Source: a candidate division WOR-3 bacterium (GTDB lineage Bacteria; Hydrothermota; Tepidihabitantia; Tepidihabitantales; Tepidihabitantaceae). From it: 64,000 nucleotides of DNA. Below, in pieces: positions 4,821 through 35,874 of this stretch. The stretch lies in the NCBI GenBank assembly GCA_965649295.1, contig CBFGKH010000003.1:64001-128000 (forward strand), given 5' to 3'. The translations under genes were made by a program, and so were the position numbers. Each line of letters begins with the position of its first letter. Position 1 is the stretch's first letter. A model generated the notes under the pieces. The model was given only the letters and a program-made list of their open reading frames with translations. It was not told the origin of the DNA and did not search any database.

Positions 4821-4883
4821 CGACTACCATCGGTATGACAATACCCATCACGTCATTCCGAGGAGGCCTGGCGGCGAGGAATC
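4821..4883. repeat. REP-like palindromic family (GTCATTCCG...GAGGAATC and GATT/ACCCTCGACT...TGAC arms)
   Basis: Same arms recur at 35458-35824 and 61102-61177. Confidence 0.7.
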
Positions 4884-5096
4884 GCCGCAGCCGGCGGTAG
4901 TGGCCGCTCGCTAGCGTTAGAACGAAAGAAGGAATGTGGCTACGAGGATGAACACGAGAAACGGAAGCTCCTAGGAACGAGAGAACCACAGGTTGCACAG
5001 CCGAGGTCGCCGAATTGCGTCCTCAATGGGTTATACGCACTAAGACCGAATCTCGTGCAGGAATTGTAATCCGGGGCACGCTTCCCCAGACCGGTT

Positions 5097-5116
5097 TGTG
5101 TACTTGCAAGTACACA
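5097..5116. promoter_or_regulatory. Perfect 20-bp palindrome TGTGTACTTGCAAGTACACA
   Basis: Direct reading; related palindrome at 35202-35229. Confidence 0.8.
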
Positions 5117-5188
5117 GAGGAGCACGGACGAACTATCGCGTAACCGCAGAGAATGCCGTGAGTTATAGTCTATCAGCCGCTTCCCGAG

Positions 5189-5482
5189 ACCCCACCCCGG
5201 GGACTGTCCCGGGAGTGGTTCGGTAGAGTTGTGGCGAGACTGCTTAGAGAGATGCTGAGGACACCATCTGCCAATCGGCTGGAGGTTGCGTCTGGGCAGG
5301 TCTTGGCATATGGGCTTCGAGGAGAAGTATCGGACGTGCTCCCCAAGCCAAGTGCAGGACTCTTCTCGGCGCTGCTACTGGGAACGTCTGCAACCCGGTT
5401 ATGGACTAGGCCTGCGGCAGCACTCCTGCTGCCCTCTCCCAAGACCCTGCTGCCAGAGCCACTCATGATGTCTTGGCCAGGC
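5189..5482 (+). repeat. 12-nt-phased degenerate array A with 33-bp anchor (5189-5221)
   Basis: 24 consecutive 12-mers from 5195, 21 starting with two pyrimidines; anchor identical to the reverse complement of 35102-35134. Confidence 0.8.
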
Positions 5483-5622
5483 AGGTCGCAGTTCTGGTCT
5501 AGCTCAGACGACGCGCAGCCTGAGACCGGCATTGACCTCTGGCCGGTCAGTTTCTAGACTGGAATTAGTTGAACACCAAGGAGAACCGGGCGGAAAGATT
5601 GTTGCTCGCGGAAAAGGAGTGC

Positions 5623-6306
5623 ATGAAGATGAAGAAATCACTGTTGTTACTGATTGCGGCGCTGGTCCTGCCGGCTGCCGGAGTGAATATTGTGCTGAAC
5701 CCGTCGTTTGAGACCTGGCTATTGGGCGTGCCGGTTGGCTGGCTGACATCAGAGGCACTGTCGCCAGGCTCGGCAGTGCGAGACTCGAACAGCCACACCG
5801 GTTCCTGGTGTGTACGGCTGGAGGCAGTGGACACGAGCGCCTTTGTAACCTCGGCAACGCTCGTTCGGCCTGGACTGAGCTATGAGTTTGCCGGTTGGGT
5901 GCGATCACCCGGCGCGGTGGCCGGTTCTTTCATCCTCCAGTTCACCAAGCTCGATGCTTCGCCGATCGGTTCGCCGACCTTGATTCCAGCCTACTACTCC
6001 GGAACAAACTATCGTGAATATCGGCGCTGGGTAACAGCACCAGACTCAAGCGTCTTTCTCTCGATCACTTTTGCAACGCTGGCCGGACTCGTTGCCTATG
6101 TTGACGATGTGACGCTCGATGATACCAGTTTGACCGCGGTAGCCGAGAGAGCACCGGTTCGGACCGAGCGGGTTCGCGGTCTCGGCAAGTTTGTCTCCTG
6201 CGGCAGTCAGGTGCCGATGCCGGCGCAGCCGGTGTATGACGCGCTGGGCCGCCGGGTGAGTCAGGCCCGACCTGGCCGCGGTGTCTATTTTCTGCTGCCG
6301 AAATAG
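5623..6306 (+). CDS. Secreted protein, carbohydrate-binding-like (CBM4/9-like) domain with short C-terminal sorting domain
   Basis: AAGGAG RBS, signal peptide MKMKKSLLLL, NIVLNPSFE start and YVDDV end of the domain, C-terminal VYDALGRRV...GVYF. Confidence 0.75.
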   Translation: MKMKKSLLLLIAALVLPAAGVNIVLNPSFETWLLGVPVGWLTSEALSPGSAVRDSNSHTGSWCVRLEAVDTSAFVTSATLVRPGLSYEFAGWVRSPGAVAGSFILQFTKLDASPIGSPTLIPAYYSGTNYREYRRWVTAPDSSVFLSITFATLAGLVAYVDDVTLDDTSLTAVAERAPVRTERVRGLGKFVSCGSQVPMPAQPVYDALGRRVSQARPGRGVYFLLPK

Positions 6307-20133: not shown

Positions 20134-21546
20134 ATGAAACCAAGTCTGAAGACCGCCACGGCATTAGCCGCCATCACTCTAGTGCTGGCTACTGGCTGTC
20201 AGCAGCCGCCGGCTGCTCCCGCCGTACCAGTCGGCCCGACCAGCGTTCGCAATGATAGCCTCTGCACCTACAGCGCTACTGCCGCTGACCCCAATGGTGA
20301 CAACGTTGCCTATCGCTTTGACTGGGGCACGGGCGACACATCAGATTGGACCGACTTCGTGGCCAGTGGTCAGCCCGGTTCCCAACAGTATGTCTTTCGT
20401 CACCGCGCCGGCACATTTCAGGTTCGTGCCCAGGCTCGCGATGCCAAGGACGCGCTTTCTCCCTGGTCAAACCCACTTACCGTCACGGTTACTAATCCCT
20501 ATCATCCCGTGCTCTGGCGCTATCAGACCGGCGCCTGGGTTCATTCGTCACCGGCCATCGCTCCTGACGGCACCATCTATGTCGGCTCATTCGACGGCTA
20601 CATGTACGCCTTCAATGCCGACAGCACGCTCAAGTGGCGCTTCCTGACCGGCAACTTCGTCCACTCGTCGCCGGCCATCGGCCCGGACGGAACGGTCTAC
20701 TTCGGCTCGTTCGACAACTACTTCTACGCCGTCAATGCCGACGGCACGCTCAAGTGGCGCTACCAGACCGCGGCGGGCTGTTGCGCTTCCCCGGCCATCG
20801 CCACGGATGGCACCGTCTATGTCGGGTCCCGCGACGGTTACCTGCACGCCATCAACCCGGACGGCTCGCCCAAATGGAACTACCAGACTGGCAACTGGGT
20901 AACATCCTCGCCAGCGATCGCTGCCGATGGCACGGTCTATGTCGGTTCCTACGACAACTACTTCTACGCACTGAATCCGGACGGCTCGCTCAAGTGGCGG
21001 TATCAGACCGGCGACCGCGTTCATTCTTCACCTGCAATTGGAGCCGATGGAACTGTCTTCGTCGGTTCGTTCGACGGCCTGCTCTATGCTTTCAATCCTG
21101 ACAGCACCCTCAAGTGGAGCTACGCGACCGGTGGCCCAATCATCTCCTCGCCGGCCATCGCGCCCGACGGCAGCATCTGCTTTGGCTCCTGCGACTACTA
21201 CGTCTATGCGCTTACTGCCGACGGCACACTCAAGTGGCGCTACCAAACAGACAGCGTCATCACCTCTTCGCCAGCCGTTGCTGCCGACGGCACTATCTAC
21301 ATTGGCTCCGGCGACAAGCGGTTTTATGCCTTCAACGCAGACGGCAGTCTGAAATGGAACTACCAAACCGGCGACTACATCGAATTCTCGTCGCCAGTTA
21401 TCGGACCGGATGGCACGGTCTATGTCGGCTCGAACGACACTTATCTGTACGCCTTTGCCGGTAGCTCACCGACCGCCAGTACGGCTTGGCCGACCTTCCG
21501 TCACGACCTCAGGCACACCGGCCGAGTGGGCGGCAGTGCCAAATAG
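20134..21546 (+). CDS. Lipoprotein with PKD-like domain and PQQ/BamB-like beta-propeller repeats
   Basis: Lipobox LATGC; about eight ~40-aa repeats SSPAI..DGT.Y.GS.D...YA.N.DG.LKW. Confidence 0.9.
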   Translation: MKPSLKTATALAAITLVLATGCQQPPAAPAVPVGPTSVRNDSLCTYSATAADPNGDNVAYRFDWGTGDTSDWTDFVASGQPGSQQYVFRHRAGTFQVRAQARDAKDALSPWSNPLTVTVTNPYHPVLWRYQTGAWVHSSPAIAPDGTIYVGSFDGYMYAFNADSTLKWRFLTGNFVHSSPAIGPDGTVYFGSFDNYFYAVNADGTLKWRYQTAAGCCASPAIATDGTVYVGSRDGYLHAINPDGSPKWNYQTGNWVTSSPAIAADGTVYVGSYDNYFYALNPDGSLKWRYQTGDRVHSSPAIGADGTVFVGSFDGLLYAFNPDSTLKWSYATGGPIISSPAIAPDGSICFGSCDYYVYALTADGTLKWRYQTDSVITSSPAVAADGTIYIGSGDKRFYAFNADGSLKWNYQTGDYIEFSSPVIGPDGTVYVGSNDTYLYAFAGSSPTASTAWPTFRHDLRHTGRVGGSAK

Positions 21547-21564
21547 CGACAAACGACGATTGTC

Positions 21565-22974
21565 ATGAATCGCTGCACTATCCTGTTGGTCCTGACTGCC
21601 GTACTCACGATTGGCTGCGACCGGCCCAATAGACCACCCAACATCCCTAACGCCCCAAGCGGGCCAACCAGTATCCGCAACGATAGCCTTTGCACGTTCA
21701 GCGCCATGACGACCGACCCAGAGGGTGACAGCATCAGCTATCGATTCGACTGGGGCACCGGCGATACGTCGGCGTGGACAGACTGGGTTACAAGTGGTCA
21801 AGCCGATTCGCAGCAGCACGTATTCCGTCATCGTGCTGGCACGTTTGCGGTTCGTGCCCAAGCCCGCGACAAGAAGCTCGCCCTGTCTATGTGGTCTGAA
21901 CCACTGACGGTGTCTGTCACCAATCCCTACTTCCCCAGAATCTGGCAGTTCGCAACCGAAGGCCCAGTCCAGTCTTCCCCGGCTATCGCCCCGGATGGCA
22001 CCATCTACTTTGGTTCCGCTGACAGACACCTCTATGCCCTCAATCCTGACAGCACCATCAAGTGGCGATTCGGTACTGGCGGAGTGATAAGCGCGTCGCC
22101 AGCTATTGGCAGCGACGGCACCATCTATTTCGGGTCACACGACAGTTTCTTCTATGCCCTCAACCCCGACGGCACGCTACGCTGGCGCTACCAGACCAGC
22201 GCCCCTGTCCAGTCCTCAGCCGCAATTGGTCCAGACCGTACCATCTACTTTGGTGCTTGTCTCGACACCCTCTATTACCTGCTTGCCCTCGGCCCCGACA
22301 GCATTCTCAAGTGGCGGTTCCGGACCGGCGGCTGGGTTCACTCCTCGCCGGCAGTTGGCGCTGATGGCACGATCTACTTCGGCTCAACCGACAGCCACAT
22401 CTACGCCCTCAACCCCGACAGCACCCGCAAATGGCGCTACCAGACCGATGGCATCGTTACTGCTTCACCAGCAATAGGAGCTGACGGCACAATCTACATC
22501 GGCTCGGGTGATGGCGGACTCTATGCGCTAAACCCAGACGGAACTCTTCGCTGGCGGCTCCCTACCTACGGCAGCATCACCTCCTCAGCTGCTCTCGGTA
22601 CCGATGGCACCATCTACTTTGGCTCCTACGACTTCCATCTCTACGCTGTCAGACCTGACGGCACTCTGCGCTGGCGCTATCAAACCGGCAACGGCATCTA
22701 CTCCTCACCAGCCGTGGCAGCCGACGGCACAATCCTCTTTGGCTCCTGGGACGGCTGGTTCTATGCTCTTTCCCCGGAAGGCAATCTGAAATGGCGGTAC
22801 GGAACTAGCGAACGGATATTCTCATCACCGGCCATCGCTGCTAATGGCACAATCTACGTTGGCGCCAACGACCGGAGCATCTACGCGCTGTGTGGTACGA
22901 CTCCGCTTGCCCACTCGGCCTGGCCCAAGTTCCGCCACGACAATCAGAACACCGGCAGGGTCACTGCTAAGTAG
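21565..22974 (+). CDS. Paralogous PQQ-like beta-propeller lipoprotein
   Basis: Lipobox LTIGC; same architecture as the upstream gene. Confidence 0.9.
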   Translation: MNRCTILLVLTAVLTIGCDRPNRPPNIPNAPSGPTSIRNDSLCTFSAMTTDPEGDSISYRFDWGTGDTSAWTDWVTSGQADSQQHVFRHRAGTFAVRAQARDKKLALSMWSEPLTVSVTNPYFPRIWQFATEGPVQSSPAIAPDGTIYFGSADRHLYALNPDSTIKWRFGTGGVISASPAIGSDGTIYFGSHDSFFYALNPDGTLRWRYQTSAPVQSSAAIGPDRTIYFGACLDTLYYLLALGPDSILKWRFRTGGWVHSSPAVGADGTIYFGSTDSHIYALNPDSTRKWRYQTDGIVTASPAIGADGTIYIGSGDGGLYALNPDGTLRWRLPTYGSITSSAALGTDGTIYFGSYDFHLYAVRPDGTLRWRYQTGNGIYSSPAVAADGTILFGSWDGWFYALSPEGNLKWRYGTSERIFSSPAIAANGTIYVGANDRSIYALCGTTPLAHSAWPKFRHDNQNTGRVTAK

Positions 22975-26669: not shown

Positions 26670-27785
26670 CTACTTCTGCTGCTCGGGCTGCAGTTTCTTT
26701 GCCGGGTTGAACTTGAACTTCTGCTGCACTATGCCGGTCACCGGCTTGCCGTCCCTAGTTGCCGGTGCGAAGATGGCTTCGAGCGCGGTGCGTATCGCAA
26801 TACTGTCAAGGAGCGGCTTGCCACTGGACCGCGCCAGCTTGACCGAACGCACCCGTCCCAGGGTATCGGTGACGAGCGTGAGCATGACCGTGCCCGTATC
26901 CTCTTCTTCCACCTCGGGCAGCTTAGGCATGGCAATGAGCCGCGGTTCAGTTGAGCCGACACGGACCGGCTGGCCAGTTGCTGCTTCCTCGGCTGGCCCG
27001 TGTTCTTCTTCCGGACGAGCCGGGGCCGGTGTCGGCTCGCTACGCGGCTTGGTCTGACCGCATAGCTCTTCAGCCGGAATCTCCCGTCGCTCCGGCTCTG
27101 GCTGAGCTGCCACGCCGACTGCTGTACCGCCGCTTGCCGGCTCGTGCGGCCGCCGTGGCCGGGTCGTACTAGCCCGCTCCCGCCCATCAATTTGAGCCTG
27201 TTCAACGAGCTCGTGCGGTTGCTCCTGTGCGGCAGTAACGGCTGGCGCTGGCAACGGAGTCTGCTGGCCGGTGGTCCCTGGCGACGGTTGCGGAACTCGG
27301 GCAACCGCCGGCCCTGGCGCAGGTGCGGGCCTGGCCCTGCCCTCGGGTTGAACCGGCGGCTCGACTCGCTCCTTCATCTTTTCGAGTGCCGCCTCAACCT
27401 GAGCAACCCGTCGCGATGTGTTCAGACTCGAACGAATCGCCTGCCAGCCGACAACTACAACAACCAGCGCCACCACCAGCCCGCCAGCCAGTGTTGCCAG
27501 TCGCGGAAACGAGAACGTCGGCCGCCAGGTCTGCTGCCGAGCTGGCCGCTGCTGGCGAATGCGACGCCAAACCCGGGTTCGCTGCCAGTCCCAGAAGTCA
27601 TCCGGTTGTGACGGCGGCTCAACCTTCCGCACCAGCGCGTGCAACTGATTGAGTGCTGCCAGCTCATCGCTGCAAGCCGAACAACCGGCAAGGTGCGCCT
27701 GCACCTGCGCAGTCTGTTCTGGCCCCAGCTCGCCATCAGCGAACGGCCCAAGTAGCGGACGAATGCGACGACACTCCGGCTTCAT
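26670..27785 (-). CDS. Zn-finger anti-sigma factor fused to TonB C-terminal domain
   Basis: HLAGCSAC zf-HC2 motif, TM helix, Pro-rich linker, SSGKPLLDSIA...FAPATRDGKPV. Confidence 0.85.
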   Translation of the reverse strand: MKPECRRIRPLLGPFADGELGPEQTAQVQAHLAGCSACSDELAALNQLHALVRKVEPPSQPDDFWDWQRTRVWRRIRQQRPARQQTWRPTFSFPRLATLAGGLVVALVVVVVGWQAIRSSLNTSRRVAQVEAALEKMKERVEPPVQPEGRARPAPAPGPAVARVPQPSPGTTGQQTPLPAPAVTAAQEQPHELVEQAQIDGRERASTTRPRRPHEPASGGTAVGVAAQPEPERREIPAEELCGQTKPRSEPTPAPARPEEEHGPAEEAATGQPVRVGSTEPRLIAMPKLPEVEEEDTGTVMLTLVTDTLGRVRSVKLARSSGKPLLDSIAIRTALEAIFAPATRDGKPVTGIVQQKFKFNPAKKLQPEQQK

Positions 27786-28354
27786 GACGCTGGCAGATAA
27801 TCCTTCAAGAGGACTCGCAATTTCTCCCGCGCCCGATTGAGCCGGGACATCACCGTGCCCACCGGAATCCCGAGTGTCTCAGCAATCTCGTTGTAGCTCA
27901 ACTCCTCTTTCACTCGCAGAAGGAAGATAGTCCGCTGGTCTGCTGGTAGCTTGAACAGAGCAGCATCAAGGTCGCGCCGCAGGCTGGAACCCTCAGCATC
28001 TGCCCGCGGGTCAGGTATGTCGGCAGCAGCGCTATCGCCGTCAGCCAGCGGCAATGGCTGCGTCGCCACCCGTCGTGCCCGCTTGAGATGATTGAAACAG
28101 AGATTCACCGCTATCTTCCGTAGCCAGGTATAGAACTGAAACCGCTCATCGAAACGGCGGATTGCCCGAAATGCCCGGATGAATGTCTCCTGCACCATGT
28201 CATCGGCATCGGCATGGTTGCGGACGAGTGAATAGGTAAGACGGTAGATGCTTGCAGCATAGCGTTTCATCAGCTCATCAAATGCCCCGGTGTCGCCCGA
28301 CTGGACAGCATGAATCAGCTCTCCGTCGCTGGGCCGCCCATCGGGCGCACTCAT
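27782..28354 (-). CDS. ECF RNA polymerase sigma factor
   Basis: DDMVQETF, FYTWL, SYNEIAETLGIPVGTVMSRL. Confidence 0.95.
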   Translation of the reverse strand: MSAPDGRPSDGELIHAVQSGDTGAFDELMKRYAASIYRLTYSLVRNHADADDMVQETFIRAFRAIRRFDERFQFYTWLRKIAVNLCFNHLKRARRVATQPLPLADGDSAAADIPDPRADAEGSSLRRDLDAALFKLPADQRTIFLLRVKEELSYNEIAETLGIPVGTVMSRLNRAREKLRVLLKDYLPAS

Positions 28355-32248: not shown

Positions 32249-33646
32249 TCACCAAACGCCGGTCCGCAAATACTCATCAATCGAGTTAGCGGCAATCCGG
32301 CCTGCACCCATCGCCAGAATCACCGTGGCCGCACCGGTAACAATGTCGCCGCCGGCAAATACGCCGCGCTTGCTCGTGCGGCCGGTCTTCGGGTCAGCGA
32401 CAACATTGCCCCACTTGGCCACTTCCAGCCCCGGGGTTGTCTGCGGTATCAGCGGATTGGGGCTGTTACCGATTGCGACGACCACCGTGTCAACCGGAAT
32501 CCGGAACTCGCTCCCTTTCACCGGCACTGGCCGCCGCCGGCCGCTCGCGTCCGGTTCGCCCAGCTCCATCCGCAGACACTCCACCTCACGCACCCAGCCC
32601 TCGCTATCAGCGATGTATCGGACCGGATTGGTCAGCAGGTGGAACTCGATACCTTCCTCTTCGGCGTGGTGAATCTCTGCCTGCCGGGCCGGCATCTCGT
32701 CGCGGGACCGACGATAGATTATCATTGACTTCTCCGCGCCCAGTCGCAGCGCGGTCCGGGCAGCATCCATTGCCACATTGCCCCCGCCAATCGTCGCCAC
32801 CCGCTTGCCGCGCACAATCGGCGTGTCATACTTGGGAAACAGGTAAGCCTTCATCAGATTCGACCGGGTCAAATACTCATTGGCCGAATAGACCCCAAGG
32901 TAGTTCTCGCCCGGAATCCCCATAAAGGTCGGCAACCCGGCGCCAGTGCCAACAAAGACCGCATCAAACTCAGCCAGCAGCTCGTCCACGGTGCGCAGCT
33001 TGCCCACGACGTAGTTCAGATGAAGCGTCACACCCATCGAGCGAATGAAGTTCACCTCGCGCTCGACAATCGCCTTGGGCAACCGAAACTCCGGAATGCC
33101 ATAGACCAGCACACCACCCGGCTTGTGCAGTGCCTCGAAAACCGTGACCGAATGCCCGAGCTTTGCACAGTCGCTCGCTACTGTCAGCCCGGCCGGCCCA
33201 GCGCCCACCACCGCTACCTTCTTGCCGGTCGGCGGCTGCATTTGGCACATCACACATTCGCTCTGCTCAGCCTCCCAGTCAGCGATAAACCGTTCCAGAT
33301 TGCCAATCGCCACCGGCTCCATCTTCTTCGCCAGCACACACTCGCCCTCGCACTGAGTCTCCTGCGGACAGACCCGACCACAGATTGCCGGCAACGTGTT
33401 CTTCGCCTTCATTATTTTCATCGCTTCCCAGAAGTTGCCCAGCGCAATCTGGCCGATGAAGCCCGGGATATCAATGTTTACCGGACATCCCTGCACGCAG
33501 CCCGGCTTCTTGCACGCAAGACAGCGCTTCGCCTCCTCAACCGCCTCTTCCGGCGAATAGCCGTAGGGCACCTCGTCAAAATTGCGGGCCCGAACCTTCG
33601 GGTCCTGCTCGCGCATCGGCGTCTTCTTCGGGCTTGGCTTAGGCAT
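32249..33646 (-). CDS. nfnB: GltD-like NADPH-dependent oxidoreductase, large subunit of bifurcating transhydrogenase (NfnB/SudA)
   Basis: CLACKKPGC, CGRVCPQE.QCE, GAGPAG, GGGNVAMD; paired with nfnA. Confidence 0.9.
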   Translation of the reverse strand: MPKPSPKKTPMREQDPKVRARNFDEVPYGYSPEEAVEEAKRCLACKKPGCVQGCPVNIDIPGFIGQIALGNFWEAMKIMKAKNTLPAICGRVCPQETQCEGECVLAKKMEPVAIGNLERFIADWEAEQSECVMCQMQPPTGKKVAVVGAGPAGLTVASDCAKLGHSVTVFEALHKPGGVLVYGIPEFRLPKAIVEREVNFIRSMGVTLHLNYVVGKLRTVDELLAEFDAVFVGTGAGLPTFMGIPGENYLGVYSANEYLTRSNLMKAYLFPKYDTPIVRGKRVATIGGGNVAMDAARTALRLGAEKSMIIYRRSRDEMPARQAEIHHAEEEGIEFHLLTNPVRYIADSEGWVREVECLRMELGEPDASGRRRPVPVKGSEFRIPVDTVVVAIGNSPNPLIPQTTPGLEVAKWGNVVADPKTGRTSKRGVFAGGDIVTGAATVILAMGAGRIAANSIDEYLRTGVW

Positions 33647-34508
33647 TTCGGCACTCCTTGTGCGCACCGCAGCAACCTGCAGCTCGCTGAGCCTCGAACT
33701 GCTCCAGCGACAGCTTCTCCTCGGGCAAGTAAGTGCGGAGCCGGGCCATCAGCAGGTCAAAATCAACCTTGTGCCCGTCAAACTCTGGGCCGTCAACGCA
33801 GGCGAACTTCGTCTCACCACCGACATCAACCCGGCAGACACCACACATCCCGGTCGCGTCGAGCATGATTGGGTTGAGACTCACTGTTGTCGGAATACCG
33901 TATGGCCCGGTCAGCTTCGAGACCATCTTCATCATGATTACCGGGCCAACCGCAAAGAGATGACCAATCTTCTCTCCGCGGTCAATCACGGCCTTGAGCA
34001 TATCGGTCACAAACCCCTTCTGACCATACGAGCCATCGTCGGTACAAACAATCAGCTCGGTAGAAGCCGACCGCATCTCTTCTTCCATCAACACCAGCTC
34101 TTTTGAGCGAAAACCGATGATGGAAATGACCTTGTTACCGGCCGCCTTCAGGGCCTTGGCAACCGGATAGACCTCGGGTGTGCCCACGCCGCCGCCAACA
34201 CAGACCACAGTCCCGTAGTTCTCGATATGGGTTGGCTGACCGAGCGGACCAATCAGGTCTAGGATGGTGTCACCAACCTCGAGCGTGCCCAGCAGCTTTG
34301 TTGACTTCCCCACCTCTTGGAACACGATAACCAGAATCCCCTTATCCGGATCGGTGTCAGCCACGGTCAACGGAATCCGCTCACCCTCCTCGTTCACCCG
34401 TAGAACAACAAACTGCCCGGGTCGGGCCTTGCGGGCGATTTCCGGCGCGTCGAGGTCAAAACGTTTGATAACCGGCGACAGCACCTGCTTGGCGAGAATC
34501 CTGGTCGT
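33639..34508 (-). CDS. nfnA: PyrK-like FAD/NAD/2Fe-2S subunit (NfnA/SudB); probable ACG start
   Basis: PGQFV, GERIPLT, GGGVG, DATGMCGVCR, CVDGPEF; first canonical start is GTG 34484. Confidence 0.9.
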   Translation of the reverse strand, partial: TTRILAKQVLSPVIKRFDLDAPEIARKARPGQFVVLRVNEEGERIPLTVADTDPDKGILVIVFQEVGKSTKLLGTLEVGDTILDLIGPLGQPTHIENYGTVVCVGGGVGTPEVYPVAKALKAAGNKVISIIGFRSKELVLMEEEMRSASTELIVCTDDGSYGQKGFVTDMLKAVIDRGEKIGHLFAVGPVIMMKMVSKLTGPYGIPTTVSLNPIMLDATGMCGVCRVDVGGETKFACVDGPEFDGHKVDFDLLMARLRTYLPEEKLSLEQFEAQRAAGCCGAHKECRNA

Positions 34509-34816
34509 AAGGCCTCCTTATGGATGATGTTGTCCAGATTGAGCAGCCGGACTACCTGCAAGGACCCGGCAGCGAACTCGGGCCCCGAGATTGGTCTGAA
34601 CCGGCTCCAACTGCCGTTCGCAACAGCCATAAGCATATAGACAAATCAGAATTAGTCAAGGGACTGAAAAACGATACCAAGCTCCCTGCCTGCCAAGGGG
34701 TTACAGCCGTTTCCCGCAAACGACCGAGCTACTACCCTAACACGCTAACCGATTGACAACAGAGAGAATAGCAAGGCCCGCCCCTAACCCAAACCACCCT
34801 GGCCGGCTTCACATTA

Positions 34817-35134
34817 TTGGCTCTCCAGCTCACCAGCCAGAACCCGAGCAAGGCCTATTCGAGGGAGTGGCAGGAACAGACCGCCAGACCACTTGGGCAA
34901 GCCTGTGCCCAAGGCCAAGGCAGGCCCATCTCCAGACCGCAGGCCAAACAGCCCGAGCAAGAGCCGCCCATACACAATAGCAAACAGCCTTCCCAGCTCT
35001 GGTCAGAAGAGCTGCCCGGACATTCTGCCCAACCCCGCCACCAGCTTATCCATCAGTAGTCCGACCCGCACCTTACCAGACAGCCTCACCAAGGGTTCAG
35101 GGAACCACTCCCGGGACAGTCCCCGGGGTGGGGT
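34817..35134 (-). repeat. 12-nt-phased degenerate array B with 33-bp anchor (35102-35134)
   Basis: 26 consecutive 12-mers on the minus strand from 35128; all start with a pyrimidine, 24 with two. Confidence 0.8.
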
Positions 35135-35201
35135 ATACAGAAACGCACTACACACCTAACTGGCTGTCATGCAGAGACTTGCACCAAGAGCCGGGCGCAG
35201 G

Positions 35202-35229
35202 TCTCTGTGAACTTCAAAGTACACAGAGA
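35202..35229. promoter_or_regulatory. Imperfect palindrome TCTCTGTGAACTT-CA-AAGTACACAGAGA
   Basis: 12 of 13 arm pairs; homologous to 5097-5116. Confidence 0.75.
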
Positions 35230-35249
35230 GCACGGGCGTATCCTTGGCT

Positions 35250-35362
35250 AACTCGTATCCACCATTAGGCCCTTCTCCATTCAGGCTGAACAAATTCCGA
35301 CCGGCTGGCACCGGCACTCCAACGGAACTCGTATCCACCATTAGGCCCTTCTCCATTCAGGC
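35250..35362. repeat. Two identical 37-bp direct repeats separated by 39 bp
   Basis: AACTCGTATCCACCATTAGGCCCTTCTCCATTCAGGC at 35250-35286 and 35326-35362. Confidence 0.9.
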
Positions 35363-35457
35363 CCTGGCTCGGATTCTAACCAACCAAACCCTACAGACGA
35401 CATCCGTAAGGCAAGAAGCCACCATGACTGACAATTAGATGCAAACACCGTTTTCCC

Positions 35458-35824
35458 GTCATTCCGAACGAGCAGAGCGAGTGAGGAATCGCCGGACAAC
35501 GAACAACGAAGACCCTCGACTGCGCTCGGGGTGACGTGCGGGTTCTTCGCTCGGTTCAGGGTGACGTGATAGGGTCTTCTCTCCGCTCGGGATGGTATGA
35601 AATGCAAGGTAACACGAGAAGGCTTTGCCACGTTCGGTTGACTGGTGACCCGCCGGACACCCAGATTCGTCTCCTCCCTGTCATTCCGAGCGCAGGTCGC
35701 AAGGCCGGAGTCGAGGAATCGTCGGCAATAAGGGACAAAGACCCCTCGACTATGCTCGGGGTGACTTGATGGGTCTTCGCTCCGCTCGGCATGACATGAA
35801 GGCGGCTTTGTCACGCTCAGGGTG
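35458..35824. repeat. Cluster of REP-like palindromic elements
   Basis: Two GTCATTCCG...GAGGAATC...ACCCTCGACT..GCTCGGGGTGAC units plus extra right-arm copies. Confidence 0.8.
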
Positions 35825-35874
35825 GTATAGCCGTAGCATACCTTGCCCGGCCATCATCGTATCGTTCCGACTCC

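Follow-up and report, generated by a model that had tools for sequence, protein, structure and literature searches.

A stereotyped multi-box leader heads about 64 tracks with a 12-bp rhythm in a candidate division WOR-3 bacterium and may be a protein-docking cassette

What is the set of conserved motifs that precedes the two 12-nt arrays in a 64,000-nucleotide stretch of the genome of a candidate division WOR-3 bacterium (contig CBFGKH010000003.1, positions 64,001 to 128,000; hereafter the window), and what might act on it? An initial annotation had described a common leader at the two arrays and proposed a protein-binding or recombination platform whose enzyme is encoded elsewhere. We find the leader at both loci, with coordinates and motifs as described, and both window arrays carry it, but the genome really holds about 64 such arrays. 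The reading that we favor, with a probability of roughly 0.45, is that the leader would be a protein-docking cassette for control and loading, composed of a class-specific operator, a promoter box like those of ECF sigma factors and a nucleation site that sets the register of the array. The anatomy, copy number and spacing of the leader, the exclusivity of its palindrome to leaders and its conservation across genera are matters of observation.

At both window loci the same elements follow one another at the same spacing (Table 1): first a palindrome, then a two-block box (TAAC-N17-GTTA), next a CCCCA tract and last a CCCGGG anchor. On alignment of the two loci an identical run of 33 nt is found around the anchor and elsewhere only the boxes match, in agreement with the earlier statement that the sequence between the motifs differs, and a repeat finder independently paired the loci as an inverted repeat (I1, 5178-5255 and 35068-35145). 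The motif TAACT-N17-TTR of the initial annotation is real and corresponds to the two-block box read on the other strand (TAACT-N17-TTA at 5141-5165 in the outward reading of locus 1, TAACT-N17-TTG at 35157-35181 in locus 2). The position-weight-matrix score of the box is 15.6 at locus 1 (G000:C3:69137, given as genome, contig and position) and 27.9 at locus 2 (G000:C3:99185, - strand). The locus 2 palindrome had been placed at 35202-35229; it exists, but that range takes in flanks of the core listed in Table 1.

Table 1. Positions in the window of the leader blocks, tracks and neighboring promoter-like sites at the two loci, and elements that replace the class-I palindrome at other tracks
Feature	Locus	Position	Strand	Description
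Block A	1	5097-5116	+	Perfect 20-bp palindrome TGTGTACTTGCAAGTACACA; class-I operator-like site
Flank	1	5117-5130	+	GAGGAGCACGGACG; common to locus 2 only
Blocks B-C	1	5137-5168	+	Two-block box GTAAC-N17-GTTAT; AAC-N17-GTT shape as in ECF-sigma promoters
Blocks D-E	1	5180-5194	+	Pyrimidine stretch CTTCCC, then CCCCA (5190-5194); directly before the anchor
Block F, anchor	1	5195-5218	+	CCCCGGGGACTGTCCCGGGAGTGG = CCCCGGGGACTG + TCCCGGGAGTGG; two idealized 12-bp units, putatively register-setting
Anchor core	1	5207-5219	+	TCCCGGGAGTGGT
Phase-locked 12-bp track	1	5219-5482	+	24 units from 5195; profile Y-Y-t-S...R-R...G
Sigma-70-type promoter-like site	1	5532-5560	+	TTGACC-17-TAGACT; between track end and gene 5623-6306
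Block A	2	35206-35225	-	Palindrome TGTGTACTTTGAAGTTCACA (- strand reading); arms differ by one mismatch
Flank	2	35226-35238	+	GAGAGCACGGGCG; on the palindrome side facing away from the array
Blocks B-C	2	35154-35185	-	GCAAGT-N16-GTTAGG; top-scoring two-block box of the genome
Block F, anchor	2	35105-35128	-	24-mer identical to the locus 1 anchor
Phase-locked 12-bp track	2	34817-35104	-	26 units from 35128
Sigma-70-type promoter-like site	2	34632-34659	-	TTGACT-16-TATGCT; between track end and NfnA/NfnB-like genes
Alternative upstream elements				TTGCACC-N8-GGTGCAA; GAAGTATAGAGTTAGTAC; GAAGTATAGAGTTAGTACAC; no element

CCCGGG lies in the invariant core of all anchors, in the window for example at 5208-5213 and 35110-35115. 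The hexamer is a common restriction-modification target, and a DNA methylase gene (N6_N4_Mtase) is found at G000:C1:198782-199561. Sequences of the d(CCCCGGGG) type favor A-form DNA.

The surroundings of the two loci have features of their own. A flank of the form GAG(G)AGCACGGRCG stands directly to the right of the palindrome on the + strand at both loci, and it therefore points toward the array at locus 1 and away from it at locus 2, as had been described. The exact sequence GAGCACGGRCG occurs at six sites in the genome, two of them next to a palindrome, and at none of the other 16 class-I palindromes; the palindrome may have undergone an exchange or an inversion locally, of which this flank would be the trace. 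Just outside the locus 2 palindrome, on its array-distal side, lies a perfect 37-nt direct repeat, AACTCGTATCCACCATTAGGCCCTTCTCCATTCAGGC, at 35250-35286 and 35326-35362 (76-nt spacing). A short GC-rich element, GTCATTCCGA...GAGGAATCGCC, is found upstream of both leaders (4846-4890 and 35455-35500), has relatives at 35513-35598 and 35743-35828 that are 73% alike (direct repeat family D5), and looks like an intergenic repeat of the REP type that is unconnected with the arrays. Beyond the tracks, separate sigma-70-like sites precede the downstream genes at both loci: at locus 1 a gene for a signal-peptide protein with no Pfam match, and at locus 2 the NfnA/NfnB-like genes 33639-34484 and 32249-33667 on the - strand. 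Elsewhere in the window, a long run of 120-nt (40-codon) intragenic repeats with the motif SPAI..DGT.Y.GS.D..LYA (20395-22900) belongs to a gene for a multi-bladed PQQ-like beta-propeller repeat protein.

The palindrome is specific to these leaders. In degenerate form, with at most two mismatches, it is found twice in the window against an expectation of 0.00 from 100 shuffles. TGTRTAC-N6-GTAYACA with at most one mismatch has 18 sites in the genome, and a reversed-pattern control has none; all 18 lie in track leaders, 15 of them heading tracks among the 64 and three heading weaker tracks. Sites with two mismatches add two more in the genome, both unrelated. The two-block box begins exactly 20 nt after the palindrome in 16 of the 18 leaders and 19 and 21 nt after it in one leader each. 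The recurrence of the motifs at the same spacing in other copies of the anchor, which the initial annotation had named as a check of its proposal, is thus what the genome displays.

The remaining blocks are more widespread than the class-I palindrome. With a profile made from 16 leaders, and inspection of further matches, we obtained 28 copies with box and anchor. Among 36 aligned leaders the box columns are A11 in 36, A12 in 34, C or G at position 13 in 31, G31 in 30, T33 in 36 and A34 in 32, and the spacer between the two blocks is 17 nt, free of insertions and deletions, in all 36. The anchor core TCCCGGGAnTGGT is present in 55 of the 64 tracks, leaving nine with no core match, and the distance from box to anchor core across the 64 arrays is quantized, being 25-28 nt in 31, 36-38 nt in 19 and of some other length in five. 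Two-block box, C-rich tract and anchor core are near-universal among the tracks; within the genome the boxes are kept as sequence at fixed spacing and the DNA between them drifts.

Downstream of the leader lies a track of 12-bp units that share a degenerate profile: pyrimidine at positions 1-2 (~90%), T-rich at 3, G or C at 4, purine-rich at 7-8 and G at 12. Both 12-mers of the anchor are near-consensus units, and the downstream units are in exact register with the anchor; at locus 1 a weaker 12-nt rhythm continues beyond the track to about 5540. A search with the anchor at up to four mismatches gave 19 matches, of which three are reverse readings of palindromic sites, leaving 16 copies, and in these period 12 ranked first in eight, second in four, third in two and outside the top four in two. 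A profile scan of the 2.28-Mb genome at a score of at least 28 (the genome-wide 99.9th percentile is about -1) yielded 64 tracks, and the number of units is near-constant, at 20-27 in 57 of them. The units are not copies of one another; Tandem Repeats Finder and a repeat finder detected no array of identical direct repeats at either locus. According to our own crude gene calls (1878 genes), the gene ahead of the track has its start facing it in 41 of the 64 cases; in the remaining 23 that gene is convergent and presents its 3' end. The genes downstream of the tracks, which include those for a lyase, LptF/G, UDP-glucose dehydrogenase, a redoxin, a glycosyltransferase, a C25 peptidase, an enoyl-CoA hydratase and AccD, have no functional theme. 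Given these orientations and the lack of a common theme, the modules behave as autonomous intergenic units and not as the 5' regions of one regulon.

Two alike intergenic stretches of ~350 nt, upstream of HIT and rubrerythrin genes (G000:C10:72191 and C5:24817), each contain a palindrome of the GGGGGAGTCACCC type together with a short stretch of 12-nt units in reverse orientation, and may be variants of the module or truncated copies of it.

Tracks that lack the class-I palindrome have a different element at the same position, or none (Table 1), and relatives of this bacterium extend the pattern. In a sister genus of lower GC content the palindrome has drifted to GTATACTTTAAAGTATAC and is multi-copy, with 12, 6 and 1 sites in three genomes. 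At all seven loci inspected there, the palindrome is followed by the box, a TTTTCC tract, CCCAACCCC and a CCCGGG-type anchor. In the five of these seven loci that were parsed, the end of the palindrome lies 25 nt from the AA of the box, compared with 26 nt in the present genome, and the block span is 23 in both. A sequence-only model of the box-to-anchor segment, which finds 55 copies in this genome, was applied to relatives with stricter filters. It matched 26 of the family's 43 other genomes and none of 22 genomes of the order's other four families. Other genera have the same block order with genus-specific palindromes upstream, for example TGATAAC-N4-6-GTTATCA and CGCGTTATACAG-GT-CTGTATAACGCG. 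The tracks of some genera are much more regular, with units close to the anchor sequence, which supports the view of the anchor as the idealized unit. Four loci of one related genus (L105, L107, L111 and L132, in genomes G021, G012 and G049) consist of nearly perfect tandem 12-mers, of types that include CCCCGGGGCCGCT and ACCCGGGTGGCT, and are much less degenerate than the tracks described here, which would suit them as idealized substrates. That the geometry is kept across genera of different base composition argues for selection on a host function. The conservation of the boxes at fixed spacing, within the genome and across genera, likewise favors the putative protein-binding platform of the initial annotation, with the protein encoded elsewhere.

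Is the two-block box a promoter? ECF (group 4) promoters of the SigE/SigH/SigR type have the consensus AAC-N16-18-GTT, with a -35 block AAC and a -10 block GT(C/T) that are 16-18 nt apart. Their cognate ECF sigma is usually autoregulated through that motif, and transcripts begin a few nt past the -10 block. The two-block box agrees with the consensus across the 36 leaders: it consists of two short blocks, invariant AA(C/G) and G(T/A)T(A), with the spacer fixed at 17 nt. As in ECF systems, the genome has additional sigma and sigma-like genes (five that clearly encode ECF sigmas, and two sigma-like genes that are divergent), and a similar box is found upstream of two sigma genes. Unlike an ECF promoter, the leader box has an extra conserved CAA block, and unlike an ECF regulon, which is a compact stress regulon, its ~55-64 copies precede non-coding tracks beside unrelated genes. 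The box is also partly a dyad, with a best symmetry score of 2.1 versus 0.96 at the next center, and may therefore be a dimer site instead of a promoter; AAC-N17-GTT is itself a pseudo-dyad, which accounts for the symmetry score. We read the box as a putative promoter-like site, directed into the array, for an ECF-like sigma factor or for some other bipartite DNA binder.

Box-like sites scoring at least 13 are found upstream of two of eight sigma genes and of one coat-like gene, compared with 1.5% of other genes away from arrays. The scores are 15.4 for the sigma-like operon on contig C8, 13.0 for a pair of ECF and zf-HC2 anti-sigma genes and 15.9 for the coat-like gene on C2. The ECF gene of this pair (G000:C3:56438-56965) lies ~7 kb before the window and is followed by the zinc-finger (zf-HC2) anti-sigma gene; its site, GCTAAGT...GATAGA, is class-II-like and 112 nt upstream, and the encoded protein is a candidate for the cognate sigma of the array leaders. 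Another of the five clear ECF genes lies within the window (27782-28354 on the - strand, G000:C3:91782-92354), and no two-block box precedes it (best score 3.4).

Other promoter classes were considered and rejected. A housekeeping sigma-70 promoter, with hexamers like TTGACA-N17-TATAAT, does not fit, as tRNA genes of this genome have canonical TTGACA/TAnAAT sites and low two-block scores. The sigma-28 (FliA) consensus is TAAA-N15-GCCGATAA; the genome has no FliA (no TIGR02479 match above the cut-off, the best match being the 602-aa primary sigma, below it) and no flagellin N-terminal domain. Nor do we count box-like matches away from the arrays as a regulon. At a score of at least 14 there are 51 such matches, 32 of them intergenic, with a matrix that is AT-rich; blocks D to F are absent after all of the 16 inspected, and several of the matches lie on or upstream of ordinary sigma-70 promoters, for example those of HU, topA, rimP and smpB. 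As the blocks are lacking in those 16 and some matches coincide with ordinary promoters or precede them, the set provides no evidence for a regulon.

The 12-bp rhythm has a counterpart in archaeal filamentous viruses. For SFV1, 12 bp of A-form DNA per coat-protein pair is reported (PMC6105669), and the period of the tracks equals this footprint. The present genome encodes paralogues that resemble rudivirus capsid proteins, four close and three weaker. Among proteins of solved structure, these match best by sequence the coats of SIRV2 (3J9X, E 0.0024) and SSRV1 (6WQ0, E 0.009), both marginal. Of 66 genomes of the order, 65 have the coat-like family, in 1 to 55 copies each. Coat-like genes lie back to back with a leader at C2:102387, C4:8089 and C6:184733 in this genome (G000) and at loci of genomes G060 and G017, and two coat-like paralogues follow sigma-like genes (C8:6467-7138 and C5:144123-144656). 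The shared 12-bp number, this adjacency and co-occurrence point to a putative link between the tracks and the coat-like proteins. Set against it, in genus g9 the motif upstream of the coat-like genes differs from the array leaders of the same genomes, which argues against a promoter common to both, and the coat family is order-wide whereas the leader model is confined to one family, a difference that may reflect either the specificity of the model or a real mismatch. A 251-codon frame (C5:142604-143359) considered as a fusion of DNA-binding and coat parts was rejected, its N-terminal half being Arg/Gly-rich and apparently non-coding, with no Pfam match.

Adnaviria nucleocapsids (SIRV2, SSRV1, AFV1, SFV1) have the same 12-bp unit, and among solved structures the small proteins of this genome are closest by sequence to the 3J9X and 6WQ0 coats. 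What we see here differs in that the tracks are short, chromosomal, provided with a multi-box leader and found in a bacterium. To our knowledge, Adnaviria coats cover whole viral genomes with neither sequence rhythm nor leader. Our full-text literature search found no description of 12-bp phased arrays in bacteria or of bacterial relatives of these coat proteins.

Under the reading as a docking cassette, the leader is the head end, stereotyped in its layout, of a non-coding DNA element dispersed through the genome in ~64 copies. The 20-bp palindrome (block A) defines the subfamily and would be the operator of a dimeric DNA-binding protein. Exactly 20 nt further, the box cTAAsT-N16-(CAAnnn)GwTAG (blocks B-C) would be a promoter-like site for an alternative sigma of the ECF type or another bipartite binder; a T-rich tract, which is short, and a C-rich one come next (D-E). 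The CCCGGG-centered anchor (F) is itself the first two near-consensus 12-bp units, with ~23 degenerate units in register after it, and it would nucleate a capsid-like coat that spreads one way along the track in a fixed register; the upstream boxes would set the timing of coating and the subset of tracks coated. Here we infer which proteins bind, that a coat forms on the DNA and any start of transcription at the two-block box.

In a bolder version, rather unlikely as a joint whole, a nucleoprotein filament that derives from a virus capsid would assemble on the chromosome, with the leader as its origin. A dimeric adaptor specific to the subfamily would bind the palindrome and, together with a dedicated sigma-type factor at the two-block box, would open or remodel the DNA next to the A-philic CCCGGG start site. 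From there ~23 capsid-like dimers would polymerize in register along the 12-bp track. Because the palindromes differ, the cell would be able to switch one subset of the ~64 tracks separately from another.

Nucleation-and-spreading sites are known elsewhere, namely parS for ParB, the high-affinity H-NS sites and the TMV origin of assembly. Of these, parS is a 16-bp palindrome near the origin to which the CTPase ParB binds. By functional analogy, the proposed arrangement would resemble them in having a short site of high specificity at one end and cooperative one-way covering, and the anchor resembles the best version of the repeating unit. Unlike in those systems, the stretch to be covered has a degenerate 12-bp rhythm and a fixed length (~23 units), further boxes precede the site, there are dozens of copies per chromosome and the candidate coat is a relative of virus capsids.

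The main rival keeps the operator and promoter readings and makes the track an RNA: the leader would be purely the promoter-operator cassette of a family of non-coding RNAs, with an ECF-type promoter at the box, an activator or repressor site at the palindrome and the RNA 5' end at the anchor, and the 12-nt-periodic body would act as RNA, as a protein sponge or scaffold, instead of as coated DNA. We regard this as doubtful. In its favor are the AAC-N17-GTT shape with its strictly fixed spacer, the sigma-like genes adjoining coat-like genes and the box-like sites upstream of the C8 sigma-like operon, the ECF and zf-HC2 pair and the C2 coat-like gene; the center of the palindrome would be ~65-70 nt upstream of the putative start, a classical activator position; and the single polarity and intergenic siting of the modules, convergent gaps included, suit independent transcription units. 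Against it, we see no terminator-like site behind the track of locus 1, the box has partial dyad symmetry, and a rhythm equal to the duplex footprint of a coat has no obvious reason in a single-stranded RNA. Folding signal is weak and present on both strands (mean z of -0.66 sense and -0.39 antisense over 40 tracks), and Rfam gave no match at the gathering score in the window, its only match being a sub-threshold miRNA model outside the module that we ascribe to chance. The palindrome as a hairpin with covarying flanks gained no support either (3.2 vs 2.98 pairs per 10; a value as high as the first arose in 1214 of 5000 permutations). The two blocks as an RNA stem were rejected, as there is no compensation, TAAG or TAAC occurring with GATAG or GTTAG regardless. 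We thus found no support for RNA structure, and the uncovaried palindrome flanks together with the slight folding signal of the tracks fit the putative protein-binding platform.

The other part of the initial proposal, recombination or an analogy to CRISPR leaders, is not supported. Like a CRISPR leader, the module is an AT-richer, motif-bearing stretch at the end of an array and at a fixed distance from the first unit, and for a site that acquires, adds, removes or inverts array units one could cite this position, the palindromes and the opposite orientation of palindrome and GAG(G)AGCACGGRCG flank at the two loci, which could be the trace of an inversion. Unlike CRISPR arrays, the tracks have no identical repeats, no spacers and no adjacent cas genes, they lie beside unrelated genes, and the flank is private to the two window loci. 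No recombinase or cas gene recurs next to the modules, and the single Cas1 match of the genome, on another contig (G000:C5:1669-2529), adjoins none of the 64 tracks. The leader is not of the CRISPR type, as the lack of identical repeats and the near-constant number of units establish, and recombination at large is barely credible. Beside that Cas1 match (a 609-aa open frame, possibly a fusion) a peak of 12-nt power at G000:C5:481-888, which is not a track, probably represents a genuine CRISPR array with a period that is some multiple of 12. It is also very improbable that the leader is the end of a selfish element that moved like a miniature transposon or REP repeat and whose copies have decayed, its boxes being transposase or replication signals. 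Copies of such repeats align over their length and have terminal inverted repeats and target duplications. Dozens of dispersed intergenic copies, palindromes at one end and subfamilies that differ in their end sequences are what such an element would leave, but the copies share only the short boxes and the rhythm, with leaders that are unalignable between boxes (the two window copies have in common the 33-nt identical run and the boxes), we saw neither a target duplication at the tracks nor a terminal inverted repeat at their far end, and the geometry is kept across genera that differ in base composition.

If the docking-cassette reading is right, the leader would serve in cis as the "address label" by which chosen pieces of a bacterial chromosome are marked and coated, in a way that has not been described before. 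Such a coating system would use relatives of proteins so far described only as archaeal-virus coats and would amount to addressable 'chromatin' in a bacterium, built from an archaeal-virus coat protein. The leader supplies short, defined DNA probes for it, namely the palindrome, the two-block box, the CCCGGG anchor and phase-shift mutants, and the subfamilies predict distinct regulators for distinct sets of tracks. Even in the ordinary reading, as an alternative-sigma promoter with an operator, dozens of copies that drive non-coding, 12-nt-periodic transcripts would constitute a new class of bacterial RNA genes.
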